From the IMG/VR virus record IMGVR_UViG_3300044796_000401: 64,000 nucleotides of DNA. One strand, 5' to 3'. Shown in pieces: positions 2,318 to 63,337 of the stretch. The translations under genes were made by a program, and so were the position numbers. The DNA comes from a virus. Taxonomy: Duplodnaviria; Caudoviricetes. Numbering within the stretch: position 1 is the stretch's first letter; every line of letters begins with the position of its first letter. The notes below the pieces were generated by a model. The model was not told where the DNA came from. It ran no database searches and saw only the letters and a list, made by a program, of their open reading frames with translations.

Positions 2318-2475
2318 TGCACACGTGCAACAAGATGTTGCCGGACTCGGCGGGAGGATATTCGCAATGCCAAAAGCCTGCCGTTCGGTCTGCACTGCTT
2401 GGCTGGTGCGGCGATGTTTTCCAGCACCGCATAAAACCCAGCAGCATACGGTTGGTCTCGCCACATCAACTGAGG

Positions 2476-2504
2476 TAGCCAAAATCCCCGGTTCCCTGTA
2501 TACT
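2476..2504 (+). promoter_or_regulatory. TAGCCA-N17-TATACT promoter (member of a dispersed family)
   Basis: Motif recurs about 12 times in the window; ATG 6 nt after the -10. Confidence 0.75.
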
Positions 2505-2510
2505 ACGGGT

Positions 2511-2822
2511 ATGGAAACCGTATCAGTTTACGTGCTCATCGAGTCGACCGTGCTCCCGAAGGGCAGGATCAACCGCAACGTGGGCGTCACCACGGACCTC
2601 GACGAGGCCAAGGACCACAAGGCCCGGAACCCCGTGCCGGGCACCGGCACCTCCTACATCGAATTTGACTACCAGGAATTCACCACCGCCACCGACCTCT
2701 TCGTGGCTGGCGCTGAATCCGCGCTTTTTATGAAAGAAATGGAGCAGTTCAAGGAAACCGTCCAAGGCGTCCGCGACAGGCTCGTGGACACCATGATGGG
2801 AAGGCAACCGCATGCTCGATAA
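2511..2822 (+). CDS. Hypothetical protein (probably leaderless)
   Basis: ATG 2511 in frame with track ORF 2292-2822, directly after promoter. Confidence 0.7.
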   Translation: METVSVYVLIESTVLPKGRINRNVGVTTDLDEAKDHKARNPVPGTGTSYIEFDYQEFTTATDLFVAGAESALFMKEMEQFKETVQGVRDRLVDTMMGRQPHAR

Positions 2823-3065
2823 CCAGCAATGGGATACGTTGCAGGACCGGATCGCCAGCGCCATATGCGCCAGCACGGGCGGAACAACCCAAGGCGGCGG
2901 CCGAACAGTATGACAAGATGTTCAAGTATCGCCGCGGCTGCAGCATGATCTTGCTGGACAAGTGGAGCGAGGCCTCGTGGATGCGCAAGCGCCCGACGTG
3001 GCACACCGCGGGCTATTCGCCATCGCTCGAAGAGGCGTTGGCCGTCTTCGAAAAGGACTGGAAAA

Positions 3066-15447: not shown

Positions 15448-16020
15448 ATGAAATACTTTATCGGTCTATTGGTTCTTTTCTTCAGTTTTGTTGGTCTTTC
15501 CGCGGCCCAGCATCCGGGCGGAGGGTCCCACGGCGGCGGTGGCGGCGGCTCCCACGGGGGCGTTAGCGGAAGCCATGGCGGCGGAAGCAGCCACGGGAGC
15601 GCCAACAAAGGCTCCTCCCACAAGGGCGGCAGTCGCGGAGCGGTCTCGCATGGCAATCAGGGACGCAATCAAGGACATCAATCGCGAGTAACCGACCGAG
15701 GACATTTCAACGGCGACCAAGGGCGTCACACAAGCGCCAACGACCGCAGCCACTTCGACGGGCGTCATTTCGACGCTGGGTATCGCGGTCGCTATTTCGG
15801 ACGCAGCAACCGTTTCCGCTTCGGGCCTCGCGTGCGGTATGGCACCGGCGGTTGGCGTTTCTGGTATGGAAATTTTTGGTTCAACATGTATGACCCGTGG
15901 TATAGTGACTGGGGATGGGGCGATGACATGTACATCGACTACTCTGAGGGTGATGATTGCTACTTCCTGTACAACTACCGCCATCCCGGATTCAGAATCC
16001 GCCTCGGCGTAGTTTTTTAG
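15448..16020 (+). CDS. Secreted Gly/His-rich protein with aromatic C-terminal domain
   Basis: Signal peptide, GGGSHG repeats, RFWYGNFWF...YIDY...YFLYNYRHPG; GAGG RBS. Confidence 0.75.
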   Translation: MKYFIGLLVLFFSFVGLSAAQHPGGGSHGGGGGGSHGGVSGSHGGGSSHGSANKGSSHKGGSRGAVSHGNQGRNQGHQSRVTDRGHFNGDQGRHTSANDRSHFDGRHFDAGYRGRYFGRSNRFRFGPRVRYGTGGWRFWYGNFWFNMYDPWYSDWGWGDDMYIDYSEGDDCYFLYNYRHPGFRIRLGVVF

Positions 16021-16233
16021 GGTTTTATCGATAGGAACATTATACCGCTACCCACATCCCAACGAACCTGCCCGTTTCATTTATGTTGGGCAGGGAGCGA
16101 ACCGGGATAAAAGACACCGTTTGGGACGTTCATCTTGTTCATCTTTTGGTCGGCGCTTCAAAAACACTTTCCCAACGTTGAACCGCTTAGCGAGCGCAAT
16201 CCCAGACTTTAGTCTGGGTAAGCGAGTGACTTT

Positions 16234-16371
16234 ATGATACAAGCACAACTCAAGCTTCGTCTCAACAAGAAGCAAGAAAACACTCTGACGGGATGGTTGT
16301 GGAACCTAACTGGTGTCTGGAACTGGGCTATCCGCAAGATAGAATTAGACGCAAAGGCGGGTGCGTCGTGA
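16234..16371 (+). pseudogene. tnpB: TnpB N-terminal remnant (45 aa)
   Basis: MIQAQLKLRLNKKQENTLTGWLWNLTGVWNWAIRKIE, typical of the OrfB_IS605 N-terminus. Confidence 0.7.
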
Positions 16372-16868
16372 TTATTTGTAAAGCGTGTTTAGTCCCTAAA
16401 GACTCTCGTGAGTTCAGCAAAGACTCTCGCAAACGTAATGGATGCCAGAGTTATTGCAAGCCTTGTGCCGCCTCTAAAATTGCTCGGGCGAGGGCGGCAA
16501 ACCCCGAGAAAGATAAAGCCACACGCAAACGGTGGGAAGCGACACACCCCCAGCGCCACTTGAAACATTCGGTAGGAATCACTCTGTCCGAGAAGCGGAG
16601 TCAATTTAAGAAGCAAGGCAGTAAGTGTGGTGCATGCGGCAGCCTTGAACATAATCACCCGTATCTGCAAGGCGAGAATGGGTGGTGCGCCGACCACGAC
16701 CACGAGACCAGACAGTTCCGTGGCGTGATTTGCTGGCCTTGCAATATGACGCTCGGATTTGCTCACGATTCCGTAGAGCGATTACTGGGCTTGCTGGATT
16801 ATCTGGCGGCTCGTAACACGCTATTTGCCGGGGCAGGATATGCCCACGAGGAGGCTTGCTATGCGTGA
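16368..16868 (+). CDS. Endonuclease VII-family homing endonuclease with TnpB-like C-terminal tail
   Basis: CKAC..CKPC; QGSKCGAC...ADHDHET..RGVICWPCNMTLGFAHDSVERL; ends AARNTLFAGAGYAHE. Confidence 0.82.
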   Translation: MIICKACLVPKDSREFSKDSRKRNGCQSYCKPCAASKIARARAANPEKDKATRKRWEATHPQRHLKHSVGITLSEKRSQFKKQGSKCGACGSLEHNHPYLQGENGWCADHDHETRQFRGVICWPCNMTLGFAHDSVERLLGLLDYLAARNTLFAGAGYAHEEACYA

Positions 16869-17209
16869 GCCTGTCAGGAATCCCAGAGTTTACTCTGGGA
16901 GTATCAAGCAAAAGCGCGTGCTTGTTACAATGGAGGCCGCACTCAGGGGCGTAAAAACGCTGAAAGCGGATTCCTCAAGATTATTCTTGCAAAGGGCCGA
17001 CACAGCCGTTGGCACATTGCCCGAAATAAGCCGAATCTCCGTTGCTCTCTTTGTGTTGACGAGGAATTAACTAAAGCGGCGGCTCATAACTGAACTCAAT
17101 TTTGCCTGCCGCGCTGAAAAGGCCGAACCTTTGCGCGAAATCTAGCGGTTGTCTCGCGTCGCAGGCATAATTTCCTCGACGTTCAATCCCCATCTGGTAT
17201 TATCTGGAT

Positions 17210-17557
17210 ATGGACGAAATCAAGCAAATCAGCATCGTCAACTCCGAGTATGGCAAGCCCTTCAATCTCTACGTTCGTTCAGACCGCCTCAAGGCGTTCT
17301 ACCAGTTCATGATCGATGAGCGCCATCCCGAGCGCAAATCCGACCCCATGCCCGGTGCGAGTTGGGCCGTGGTGCTGGGGCTTGATGCGATCTTTGCCCG
17401 CCGCCCCAAGAAATTTCCCGTCGATGACATCCTGCTTTGGCTGGCCAGCGGCATCATTCCACACCCGGATTTCCCGCGCGTGACCAAGACCGAGGTCGAG
17501 TACGCCCTTGAGCGTTTCTCCGCGATGTACCCTCCGGACGCCTCGGAGGACGCATGA
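17210..17557 (+). CDS. Hypothetical protein (probably leaderless)
   Basis: TATTAT 17198-17203, 6 nt, ATG. Confidence 0.7.
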   Translation: MDEIKQISIVNSEYGKPFNLYVRSDRLKAFYQFMIDERHPERKSDPMPGASWAVVLGLDAIFARRPKKFPVDDILLWLASGIIPHPDFPRVTKTEVEYALERFSAMYPPDASEDA

Positions 17558-47557: not shown

Positions 47558-48049
47558 TTAACGCGTGCACCGCGATTGTGGAAGATCGCGAACAATTAGA
47601 TGTTTCTTTTTAAGATACGCGATAGCCTTGTATAAAAGCTCCACGTTATCTTGAAACAAGCCAAGGGCTCGATTATGCGCGTCACATAACAAGCCGCGTA
47701 TCTCGTCCGTCTCATGGTCGTGATCTACGGACAGTCTACGATTCTTTTTGGGAGGACGACCGCAAAGGGCGCAACCTCCTCCTTGCTCTTCGGAAAGTCG
47801 TTGATATAGCGTCTCTGAAATTCCGTGTCTCAAGCGAAGATCGGTTTTTCTTTGTGCCTGTTTTACGGCTTCTGGATGTGTTTTACACCATTGTCTATAG
47901 CGATCATTATCGCACGACTTACAATAAGCACGTAAGTATCCGTTTTTTCTGACGCCGAATTCGGCTATAAGTTTTGGGAGTGTACAAATGGGGCACCGTT
48001 TCGTTTCTATCGGTCGTTTATGACATCGTTTTGTTGGTTGTGCAGTCAT
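47558..48049 (-). CDS. Endonuclease VII-family homing endonuclease
   Basis: CPIC..CKSC; QGGGCALCG...SVDHDHET..RGLLC..HN.ALG.FQDN..LL.KAI.YL; AT-rich. Confidence 0.87.
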   Translation of the reverse strand: MTAQPTKRCHKRPIETKRCPICTLPKLIAEFGVRKNGYLRAYCKSCDNDRYRQWCKTHPEAVKQAQRKTDLRLRHGISETLYQRLSEEQGGGCALCGRPPKKNRRLSVDHDHETDEIRGLLCDAHNRALGLFQDNVELLYKAIAYLKKKHLIVRDLPQSRCTR

Positions 48050-54051: not shown

Positions 54052-54381
54052 TTGCGAACGAACGCTGGGACAAAGAAATGGAGCCGTTCCTTGAGGAAAA
54101 CCAGTCGAAAGCCAAGAAGTAAGTATCCGACCGTCCGCGCTGGCTGCCGCCACTGGTTCGGAATCGTGCCCACCGACAAGCGGATCGATAAATATGCGCA
54201 AGCGCATTGCATCCTCAAGGAGGATATTCCCGAGGACATCTTCGACACCATGGACCGGGACTTGTTCATCAATATCATCGTGGAGGATGCGCTTGGCAAG
54301 GGGTATAATCGGCCCATGAATTGCGACTCCGACGAGTACAAGAACAAGTTCTATCCGCTGTTCTACCAAGTCGCGCCGTAG
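54052..54381 (+). CDS. Hypothetical protein, probably truncated by the IS-derived element
   Basis: Stop at element left junction; a frame RKAIKKGIKVTAAARR resumes after the right end. Confidence 0.5.
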   Translation: MRTNAGTKKWSRSLRKTSRKPRSKYPTVRAGCRHWFGIVPTDKRIDKYAQAHCILKEDIPEDIFDTMDRDLFINIIVEDALGKGYNRPMNCDSDEYKNKFYPLFYQVAP

Positions 54382-54648
54382 AGCCCCTGCCTTCAGGCAT
54401 GGGGATATAAGGCGCGTTATACAGCTTAAAGATATTTATTGACAAACAGAAAGCGAAGGCGTACACTTTCATTGAAGGTTTGAGAATCCTAGCCGAGGGA
54501 CGCTCGGTATCAGCCTGTGGAGGCACAGTAAGTCTTGAGCGCGAGCCCAAGCATGTGCCTGTGAAGCAGGAAACATCGTTGGAGACGTGCGGCAATGCCG
54601 CATAGTAACTCCAAAGAATCCCCCGCCTTTAGGCGTGGGGAGTCTCAA
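54381..54648 (+). mobile_element. Miniature IS200/IS605 derivative retaining tnpB 3' end (omegaRNA scaffold) and a promoter
   Basis: Left hairpin CCCCTGCC-TTCA-GGCATGGGG; TTGACA-N17-TACACT (54439-54467); ILAEGRSVSACGG..VKQE tail; right hairpin CCCCGCC-TTTA-GGCGTGGGG then AGTCTCAA. Confidence 0.8.
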
Positions 54649-54701
54649 AGGAAGGCAATCAAGAAGGGCATCAAGGTCACGGCTGCCGCCCGGAGGATCG
54701 C

Positions 54702-61919: not shown

Positions 61920-62651
61920 ATGGATTCCATAACCTTTTTGACCCCGAATGACCTTTGTTGGCCCCTCGGCGTGCAAGACACGACGCCGCAGTACACCTTC
62001 GGCTCGGGCACCCACCAGCGCAGCCTCAAGGTCGATCCGTATCCCGCCTACCCGCATGATCTGGAGCTTGTGGAAAGAACCCTCGGCCATTGCATGGATG
62101 TCTTCCCCCTCAAGGCTGCCAAGTTCGGGCTGTGGGTGCTGAGCCACGACCTGATCGACAGGATAAACGGGCTCACCTACGAGGATTACGAGTATTACCG
62201 GGAGGACGGCTCCGACTGGGAGGACATGATCCCCCGCTACGACGGCTCCGGCGAGATGCGCAAGTTCTACGGGCAGGCGATCAGCATCGCGCTGGCGGCC
62301 AAGCGCGTTCCTATTCATCCGGCGATGACCCGCTACCTCGTGTCCCACGAATACGGGCACGCCGCCTTCTATGCCGTCGCACGAGCCATGGGCTACAAGG
62401 ACAGCGAGAGGGACAAGCTGGAAGCGAAGTACATGGAGCTTCGGGGAATCGAGGATTACGCCAAGAAATACCGGGGCGGCGACTGGCACCGCAACCCCGG
62501 AGAGATCATCGCCAACGATTTCCGCATATTATTCACAAAGCAAGAAATGGAGTTCTGGCCCCACGACTGTTGTCCGCTTCCGGCATGGTCCCAGCCCGAG
62601 GGGAAGTGGTGGCGGGAAGCGGCTGAGTTGTGCGGGGTGGCACTTAGATGA
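61920..62651 (+). CDS. Zincin-like HExxH protein
   Basis: VSHEYGH, E.IANDF. Confidence 0.7.
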   Translation: MDSITFLTPNDLCWPLGVQDTTPQYTFGSGTHQRSLKVDPYPAYPHDLELVERTLGHCMDVFPLKAAKFGLWVLSHDLIDRINGLTYEDYEYYREDGSDWEDMIPRYDGSGEMRKFYGQAISIALAAKRVPIHPAMTRYLVSHEYGHAAFYAVARAMGYKDSERDKLEAKYMELRGIEDYAKKYRGGDWHRNPGEIIANDFRILFTKQEMEFWPHDCCPLPAWSQPEGKWWREAAELCGVALR

Positions 62652-63337
62652 CATCGGGACGAACATACGAGGTTTTCGTGGACGGCAAGCCTGCGGGGCT
62701 TGTGGGGAGCACCGTGAAGACCTTGGAACAGCGCCGGAAAAACAAGTACCCCAAACGATTCGGTTCCACGGTAGAGCTTCGCCTTATCCGGGAAATCCCT
62801 CGTCCGGAAGGCTATTTGGACTTTGACTACAACTTTTACCTCAAGGCCTGCGAGGCGATGGACATCGCGAGGAAAAAGACCTATGTAGAAGACGGGGGAC
62901 TCAACAGGATATCCCCGTTGATTCAAGCACTAGGACACCCGATGCTTGAAAGAGAAATGGGGCGGATAGGCGGACGTACGGCTGCACGTAAGAATATAGA
63001 AAGCGGACAGGTTGCTAAGATTGCTACCTATGAATCCCGCGCTAAAGGTGGACGTACAGGCAGTCGCAAGCACAACGAGCTTTATGGCAACCCAGCCACT
63101 TCTGAGGGGCGTGCTAAAGCCGGGCGCACAAACATAGAGAGCGGGCAAGTTCTAAAACTTGGATACAAGCAAGGACGCAAAAACGCTGAGAGCGGATATA
63201 TTCAAGCCCTCGGGCACAAGCAGGGATGTAAGAACGCCAAGAATGGGCATCTTGCTCGCATTCGTCATATCCGTTGGCATGTCAACCGGAATCTCAATAA
63301 TCCGAATTGCGAACTGTGCAGAAAACACGAGGGATAA
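62648..63337 (+). CDS. GIY-YIG-like homing endonuclease with repeated GRKNxESG motifs and terminal Zn motif
   Basis: YEVF...LVGST..L.QR, E..DI...T, GGLN; GRKNAESG repeats; RHIRWH...NPNCELC. Confidence 0.7.
   Translation: MTSGRTYEVFVDGKPAGLVGSTVKTLEQRRKNKYPKRFGSTVELRLIREIPRPEGYLDFDYNFYLKACEAMDIARKKTYVEDGGLNRISPLIQALGHPMLEREMGRIGGRTAARKNIESGQVAKIATYESRAKGGRTGSRKHNELYGNPATSEGRAKAGRTNIESGQVLKLGYKQGRKNAESGYIQALGHKQGCKNAKNGHLARIRHIRWHVNRNLNNPNCELCRKHEG

Follow-up and report, generated by a model that had tools for sequence, protein, structure and literature searches.

Positions 16183–16907 of IMGVR_UViG_3300044796_000401, a 64,000-nt stretch of viral DNA from IMG/VR (Duplodnaviria; Caudoviricetes) that is called the window throughout, constitute a 725-nt non-autonomous element of the IS605 family in which the core of tnpB has been swapped for a gene coding for a His-Me finger nuclease. 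Read from the target word TGAA, the element comprises in order a left hairpin, 41 tnpB codons, the nuclease gene fused to 20 further tnpB codons, a right hairpin and the terminal word TCAA. The replacement of the tnpB core by a His-Me nuclease gene within intact IS605 ends, which a preliminary description of the sequence had proposed, is upheld by our analysis, and the same nuclease was found between tnpB remnants in eight further lineages, down to <50% identity. With the balance standing about even, we propose that the nuclease gene is a homing-type cassette whose home would be tnpB itself and which, after a cut of its own making, would replace tnpB cores by recombination. The parts of the element are the following.

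16183–16907, + strand: whole IS605-family element; its first base is the C after TGAA and its last word TCAA
16198–16218, + strand: left-end subterminal hairpin (stem 16201–16207/16212–16218), with guide-like GCAA 5′ of the hairpin
16234–16371, + strand: tnpB start remnant, a 45-codon open reading frame (ORF), tnpB-like to 16356, whose stop overlaps the nuclease start (GTGA)
16368–16805, + strand: His-Me finger nuclease proper, with an N-terminal CxxC...CxxC zinc ribbon and a beta-beta-alpha-Me domain; Endonuclease_7 family
16806–16868, + strand: last 20 tnpB codons and stop, in frame with the nuclease and aligning with the TnpB C-terminus after DRDV(N)
16831–16845, + strand: hairpin H1 (GGGCA-GGATA-TGCCC) inside the tail codons G-A-G-x-A, a presumed omegaRNA stem or single-strand DNA structure
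16879–16907, + strand: right end, with guide-like GGAA, a hairpin (16881–16888/16893–16900), then GTATCAA with the cleavage site TCAA

A nuclease gene within an IS605 shell

Both tnpB remnants match full-length relatives, whose TnpB begins with MIQxQLKLR... and ends with ...DRDVNAA[IR]NTLxxGAGxAHE. Residues 1–41 of the 16234–16371 ORF are 93% identical to the start of the full-length TnpB of locus L116 (tblastn, E 5e-19), and the PF12323 match of this ORF is weak (E 0.022). Its TGA overlaps the GTG at 16368 that opens a 166-codon ORF (16368–16868), which reads in frame into AARNTLFAGAGYAHE..., a stretch that aligns with the C-terminus of full-length TnpB from directly behind its RuvC motif DRDV. 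The 45-amino acid TnpB start with its overlapping stop and the in-frame fusion of an endonuclease VII to the TnpB tail, both read earlier from the sequence, are hence borne out. tnpB is replaced from about codon 42 to codon 329; only residues 1–41 and the last 20 are left and, with the right junction lying after DRDV, no RuvC catalytic residue, so that what remains does not qualify as a TnpB. A terminator-like 6-bp hairpin, GACGCA...TGCGTC, lies at 16348–16367, exactly at the junction of tnpB remnant and nuclease, and its loop AAGGCGGG is directly 5′ of the GTG nuclease start.

The ORF 16368–16868 matches PF02945 (Endonuclease_7) with an E-value of 1.6e-14 and 54 bits, against a curated cut-off of 23.6. 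C4, C7, C30, C33, C87, C90, D109, H110, C122, C125 and N126 are invariant in 29 relatives, and the two Cys4 sites and the catalytic D-H...N are all among these residues. The AlphaFold 2 (AF2) model has a predicted local distance difference test score (pLDDT) of 91 for the nuclease and of 63–78, its lowest confidence, in the TnpB tail. The top Foldseek match, which spans both domains, is Hpy99I (E 1e-4), followed by T4 endonuclease VII (E 0.015–0.03), and a profile search of the PDB agrees with both; a PDB search by single sequence returned no match for the nuclease. Hpy99I is a sequence-specific beta-beta-alpha-Me restriction enzyme. On the conserved residues and the modeled fold, the nuclease looks active and possibly sequence-specific. 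The window also encodes a free-standing Endonuclease VII-type protein of 163 amino acids (ORF 47558–48049, − strand), 29% identical to the cassette nuclease (E 3e-14), next to which tblastn detected no tnpB remnants.

The two terminal hairpins (16198–16218 and 16879–16899) are a 21-nt direct repeat, 90% identical and with a compensatory C/G swap in the stem. This hairpin pattern has just two matches in the 64-kb window, for 0.01 expected by chance, and they lie where the preliminary description had placed them. Palindromes are subterminal at both ends and terminal inverted repeats are absent, as is characteristic of IS200/IS605 elements; the same hairpin architecture is present in >40 related copies, and the left end of the window element matches those of full-length elements. 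The right end was confirmed as well: the window has TCAA at 16904–16907, and in 16 related loci the flanks part exactly after TCAA. On the left, the conserved block starts TGAA/C in 11 phage and 20 bacterial copies, and within one genome the left sides of copies are alike from TGAAC onwards. An occupied site in a Waddliaceae genome (G003) reads ...TTTTGAA/CGAAAT...GGTTCAA/GAAGATA..., whereas the corresponding empty site in a relative (G005) reads ...TTTTGAA/GAAGATA...; the target is therefore TGAA, and the element starts with C and ends with TCAA. TGAA lies to the left of every copy, TCAA is the last word, and there is no target duplication. The guide-like words GCAA (left) and GGAA (right) differ from each other at the position at which TGAA also differs from TCAA, and the difference is compatible with Watson-Crick pairing; this covariation would be predicted by the rule for cleavage-site recognition that Barabas and colleagues reportedly described for IS608 in 2008. 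Since no TnpA is encoded within it, the element is non-autonomous. Its ends carry all the features common to autonomous members that encode a Y1 TnpA, which makes mobilization of the shell by TnpA in trans plausible.

The parent family was delineated by two scans. A right-end pattern scan of IMG/VR yielded the 16 loci cited above, most of which encode a 347–351-amino acid TnpB (PF07282 and PF01385) and two of which are true miniatures (L007, 255 nt; L017, 206 nt). A TnpB-profile scan yielded 51 loci in phage contigs and 30 in bacterial metagenome-assembled genomes (MAGs) of Acidobacteriota (Terriglobales, Acidoferrales), Waddliaceae and others, where they are often multicopy. Autonomous relatives consist of tnpA and a tnpB coding for 347–353 amino acids; they occur in multiple copies in genomes of Acidobacteriota and Waddliaceae and are frequent in phage contigs. 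Their Y1 transposase (131–132 amino acids; PF01797, E 4e-42) is encoded between the left hairpin and tnpB in bacterial copies and in some phage copies, and each of four host genomes holds 6–13 matches. Given this transposase and these multicopy genomes, the parent family is a genuine IS605/IS608-type insertion sequence. Two other members of the family are of note: a protein-free miniature of ~268 bp at 54381–54670 of the window, with the right end ...AGAATCCCCCGCCTTTAGGCGTGGGGAGTCTCAA, belongs to a CCCC-stem branch found in Acidobacteriota and Waddliaceae copies; and locus L006, on the same contig as L065, has two identical right ends 346 nt apart (955–986 and 1301–1332) behind one tnpB, i.e., a solo or duplicated right end.

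Recurrence of the chimera and allelic state of its site

The nucleases of the other lineages are 46–63% identical to the window protein, and their ORFs are intact with all catalytic and zinc residues. The closest homologues (P0002–4; 62, 63, and 58% identity) all have the TnpB tail, as do the 50%-identity clusters P0006, P0007, P0008, P0028, and P0039, obtained by a profile search of 1.84 billion representatives; each of these proteins reads into NAA[IRV]NTL..G.G..HE. A maximum-likelihood tree built from the nuclease part without the tail groups eight chimeras with four tail-less proteins in a single starred clade (support 96/84). The search for other copies that the preliminary description had called for thus shows that the window element is not a dead one-off, and nothing on an Endonuclease VII-type gene within an IS605 shell came up in our literature search. 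The shells themselves are diverse. Both hairpins are present in L002, whose tnpB start is frameshifted and whose right end shares 34 identical nt with that of the window element; L004 likewise has the two hairpins, with next to nothing of the tnpB start; in L003 a tnpB start is present and the right end is degenerate; and the loci of the five clusters have tnpB starts of 22–74 codons, some of them decayed, mostly without hairpins. The right junction invariably falls directly behind the DRDV(N) codons, whereas the left one varies from 2 to 74 codons, and an ATTCAG remnant precedes the nuclease start in L002 and L004. P0009, the closest relative without the tail, is a free-standing gene product of a phage-like contig and ends in ...YLKKNA, and L002 reads NAA-NAA, a doubled NAA, at the junction; both observations suggest recombination in the NAA codons. 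From its tail motif NAARNIL, L111 may have arms that derive from a different tnpB lineage; no Pfam match was obtained for its N-fragment. L002 also carries a second Endonuclease_7 gene (2332–3006, 224 amino acids) ~600 nt downstream of P0002, adjoining a RuvB/AAA-like gene.

Each chimera shell is nearer to some full-length element than to the other chimeras. Over its tail and right end, L002 matches the full-length element L031 at 99% identity and other chimeras at ≤77%; the window element has a tail 88% identical to L053, vs. 77% for the best chimera, and a 5′ arm 78% identical to L043; for L022, the closest element to either arm is L037. Together with the junctions and with the allelic pair described below, these mosaic shells point to repeated recombination through the tnpB remnants.

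Public sequencing runs were compared with the window over 15900–17300. Contigs of 7.8 and 31 kb from X2 and X3, two runs of one study whose library type is unrecorded, have 0 differences from the window over 15900–16344 and 16963–17300 and three differences over 16806–16905, and between 16344 and 16806 they contain 876 other bases, compared to 461 in the window. The sum of 111 + 876 + 63 is 1050 nt, which corresponds from start to stop to a tnpB of 349 amino acids, the exact length of P0181/L116, the closest full-length relative found. P0181, the closest TnpB in the protein search, was itself considered as the sister allele and ruled out, as it lies at another site. On these alignments, the chimera and a full tnpB look allelic at one site, so that alleles with and without the nuclease gene occur at a single locus, as is the case for homing genes. 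Of 24 contigs from ENA, JGI, and Logan that carry the neighboring gene, the five listed all have the chimera allele, and in the four contigs compared it is 100% identical to the window; this look-up returned chimera contigs only, among the matches listed, and not the sister allele. An exact-pattern scan for the junction specific to the sister allele likewise gave 0 matches in JGI and IMG/VR.

The flanks of the element include the remains of a host gene and a segment in which the two alleles differ.

16013–16182, + strand: left host fragment, an open frame with the GIY-YIG-like motif LYRY...FIYVGQG...R and no start codon, ending with TGAA at 16179–16182
16908–17093, + strand: right host fragment, an endonuclease tail module with GRKNAESG (GRKNxESG) repeats and an H-x3-H...C-x2-C end
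16908–16964, + strand: 57-nt segment absent from the sister allele in the long X2/X3 contigs (joint 16905→16963, 2 nt fitting either side)

The preliminary description had taken the two fragments for a GIY-YIG gene whose frame resumes at 16908. The C-terminal part is indeed a real module, 42% identical (E 5e-9) to the tail of the window ORF 62648–63337, although it has no Pfam match and no longer relatives were found for it. The N-terminal part, by contrast, has neither a start codon nor a Pfam match even at E 1; its nearest ESM Atlas clusters are all GIY-YIG, with scores of 0.87–0.88 that are at lead level only. The in-frame resumption proved to be off by one base, since the empty site in the relative puts the start of the element after TGAA, and the alternative that the host gene would be joined in frame at TGAAC was rejected on the same ground. 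Precise excision at TGAA joins the left frame to ...KQKRVLV... and not to the conserved tail frame, which has a stop at 16108–16110; the supposed GIY-YIG gene would thus be at best a decayed or composite gene. Neither tblastn with both host fragments nor blastn with the region had a match in GenBank phages. The 57-nt segment begins right after TCAA and ends with the family target word TGAA (16961–16964). Its loss resembles a cut-and-join of the TnpA type that would have linked the right end to the next target word, in which case TnpA would have acted on the window copy, or could be a repeat-unit indel of the tail module (19 codons).

Nucleic-acid structure in the retained tail

Hairpin H1 lies within codons that every chimera has kept. 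In an alignment of 35 sequences, 93% of the cells are paired and 5/5 pairs have changed on both sides; this covariation was reached in 0/500 shuffles, and slid controls were far lower. H1 is intact in 9/9 chimeras, including those devoid of a right-end hairpin, and amino-acid changes in the tail (e.g., A..A to V..T) track its stem. Judged by this covariation, the retained tail is held by nucleic-acid structure. Full-length elements have a second covarying hairpin, located in CxxCG codons ~120–135 nt before the right end, which is missing from the chimeras; by comparison with these relatives, only the 3′ part of the presumed omegaRNA survives, namely the last ~100 nt with H1 and the right-end hairpin. 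Of the presumed omegaRNA, to which the preliminary description had pointed, these two hairpins are therefore kept and the upstream part is not. The first ~16–20 nt of the right host fragment (16908–17093) would be the guide of any omegaRNA. No Rfam family was found in 15900–17300.

In alignment A4 (L027-L104, columns 101–117), a hairpin NNNN-UGUGG-NNNN is formed where the second CxxCG of the TnpB zinc finger is encoded, and its stem varies by compensatory changes, so that RNA structure appears to be written into variable residues of the finger. Covarying hairpins in tnpB codons are of interest in themselves, as they show RNA structure dictating amino-acid changes in the TnpB tail.

Contigs of a peat metatranscriptome run (X1) cover 15900–16203 and 16757–17300 and bear neither on transcription nor on RNA ends; the uncovered middle (16203–16757) carries no meaning. 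In the contig that covers 16757–17300, an Illumina adapter lies directly at 16757, ~150 nt before the right end, which may be an RNA fragment end or mere chance.

Origin and maintenance of the nuclease cassette

The element entered a decayed endonuclease-like gene of a giant phage from peat, inserting 3′ of TGAA. In the homing-type reading that we propose, its two tnpB remnants would serve as homology arms through which full-length tnpB is converted to the cassette form, and back, by recombination. The nuclease would make the initiating cut in the full-length allele, most plausibly in a part that the cassette lacks or splits, e.g., the conserved motif coding for RuvC-III at the invariant right junction. 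Indirect signs of such homing are the mosaic arms and the position of that junction in a conserved motif. As neither end is damaged, the shell should still be movable by TnpA supplied from host or phage copies. More tentatively, at what we would put somewhat below an even chance, the nuclease may be a homing endonuclease that parasitizes the transposon: with tnpB as both target and home, it would overwrite TnpB cores where IS605 copies meet, phage with phage or phage with host, ride on the transposon ends and keep part of the guide-RNA module. Such a nuclease would get round the bar on protein-guided nucleases serving transposons, since its target travels with the transposon.

Several observations weigh against this proposal. 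The left hairpin is lost in 6/9 chimeras, four of which have no right one either, and the shell around the cassette is therefore dead in many cases. On the maximum-likelihood tree of the nuclease part, the distribution of the tail takes four changes to explain, so that several losses or else several gains of the tail are required. The 876 bases of the X2/X3 contigs are taken for tnpB from their length and position, and ordinary recombination between IS copies, with no involvement of the nuclease, could also yield mosaic shells. Neither a TnpA nor a full-length tnpB is encoded anywhere in the 64-kb window. The sample of chimeras amounts to nine lineages, and protein-pattern scans of IMG/VR and of JGI metagenome contigs found no chimera or nuclease relative, even though one nuclease homologue comes from a JGI sample.

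A different account, which we consider possible though probably incorrect, views the nuclease as passive cargo: one old illegitimate fusion would have brought a phage Endonuclease VII-type gene into a tnpB-only element, which then spread by TnpA transposition and diversified, while recombination between insertion sequences shuffled the ends and the nuclease served the phage, by branch resolution or by attack on host or competitor DNA, and not the element. The chimeras do fall in one clade whose nearest member outside them, P0009, is free-standing in a phage-like contig, the window holds a free-standing Endonuclease VII paralogue at 47558–48049, and T4 endonuclease VII is a fold match. However, the six chimeras deprived of a left hairpin, including the four also deprived of a right one, keep their tnpB remnants and in-frame tail, which implies that transposition is not what maintains the association. 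Both alleles, moreover, occur at one site with identical flanks, and the NAARNIL tail of L111, despite the lack of a Pfam match in its N-fragment, may reflect arms from another tnpB lineage.

The model of the preliminary description, i.e., that once TnpA has excised the element a protein-guided homing nuclease cleaves the vacated donor site and thereby has the element copied back, is unlikely. It would account for a nuclease exactly in the position of TnpB with both ends intact, and restoration of this kind is established for TnpB (bioRxiv 10.1101/2023.03.14.532601). Intact-ended chimeras (the window element, L002, and L004) are nevertheless found at unrelated sites with only TGAA in common, which argues against restorative homing, and cleavage at every TGAA would tear up the very genome that encodes the nuclease. 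Where the insertion site changes each time, a transposon cannot be restored by a protein-guided nuclease, as a protein cannot re-learn each flank (PMC13565253, section 6.3); that section of a 2026 review holds protein-guided homing nucleases to be almost impossible partners for such transposons, with KolobokP as the only transposon known to have such a nuclease. The chimera family would be a counter-example to this statement or, as seems more likely, would solve the problem differently, with the transposon rather than the insertion site as the target of its nuclease.

We regard it as very unlikely that cassette and shell are an inactive, decaying relic whose conserved features are left from recent ancestry. 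The Shine-Dalgarno block of full-length left ends is not present in the window element, a promoter and terminator scan gave nothing above chance and no promoter-like site in the element, and the surrounding host gene is broken; on the other side, the nuclease ORF is intact with catalytic and zinc residues kept across lineages at 46–63% identity, H1 covaries and is perfect in all chimeras, and the allele is identical in the four contigs compared. Scarcely credible, finally, is an RNA-guided His-Me nuclease steered by an omegaRNA 3′ module (H1, right-end hairpin and flank-derived guide) bound via the TnpB tail: chimeras that have lost the right-end hairpin still retain H1 and the in-frame tail, but the tail has just 20 residues with the lowest model confidence (pLDDT 63–78), the upstream omegaRNA hairpin of full-length elements is missing, and the residues that change in the tail do so to suit the stem and not a protein interface.

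TnpB with its omegaRNA is the ancestor of Cas12 and belongs to one of the most abundant gene families known. To our knowledge, the only role of TnpB known so far is to keep its transposon in place. The recurrent replacement of TnpB and the tnpB-sized allele at one site in a phage population suggest that tnpB can also be a niche for another selfish gene, for which the cassette allele and the full-length allele provide a concrete, testable pair.

The element resembles, and differs from, several known systems. Like IS200/IS605 elements of the IS608/ISDra2 type, it has subterminal hairpins without inverted repeats, guide-like bases 5′ of each hairpin, insertion 3′ of a fixed short word (here TGAA) and, as in IS608, a TCAA end; its autonomous relatives likewise have a Y1 tnpA overlapping tnpB, and its family has a structured RNA encoded in the 3′ end of tnpB. 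Unlike them, it has no tnpA and only codons 1–41 and the last 20 of tnpB, the RuvC residues being gone and the gap being filled by a His-Me nuclease gene. Palindrome-associated transposable elements (PATEs) and other miniature IS200/IS605 derivatives are similarly non-autonomous, with both ends retained and tnpB internally deleted, whereas the window element holds a complete and conserved foreign nuclease gene, a state that recurs across lineages. IStrons (bioRxiv 10.1101/2023.11.20.567912), in which a group I intron is joined to IS605, also merge a second selfish element with an IS605 shell, where it competes or overlaps with the omegaRNA region; there, tnpB is retained and the partner is a ribozyme, while a protein nuclease is the partner in the window element, whose tnpB is destroyed.

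As for the nuclease, it shares the D-H...N catalytic core and a Cys4 zinc site with Hpy99I and T4 endonuclease VII, and an N-terminal zinc-ribbon domain with Hpy99I, from which proteins it differs by an identity of ~20%, the lack of a methylase partner and a C-terminal extension derived from TnpB. KolobokP, in the account given in section 6.3 of PMC13565253, is likewise a transposon with a beta-beta-alpha-Me nuclease related to homing endonucleases, but it is eukaryotic, has a DDD/E transposase and, unlike the window element, has not replaced an RNA-guided nuclease. The proposed homing-type cassette finds a parallel in the free-standing homing genes Seg and Mob of T4 (intronless homing), where a phage nuclease gene likewise lies between conserved arms, with alleles with and without the gene and mosaic flanks. 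In the present case the arms are the two ends of a transposon gene, the allele devoid of the nuclease would be a full-length gene for an RNA-guided nuclease, and ~880 nt are swapped for ~460 nt in place of a simple insertion.

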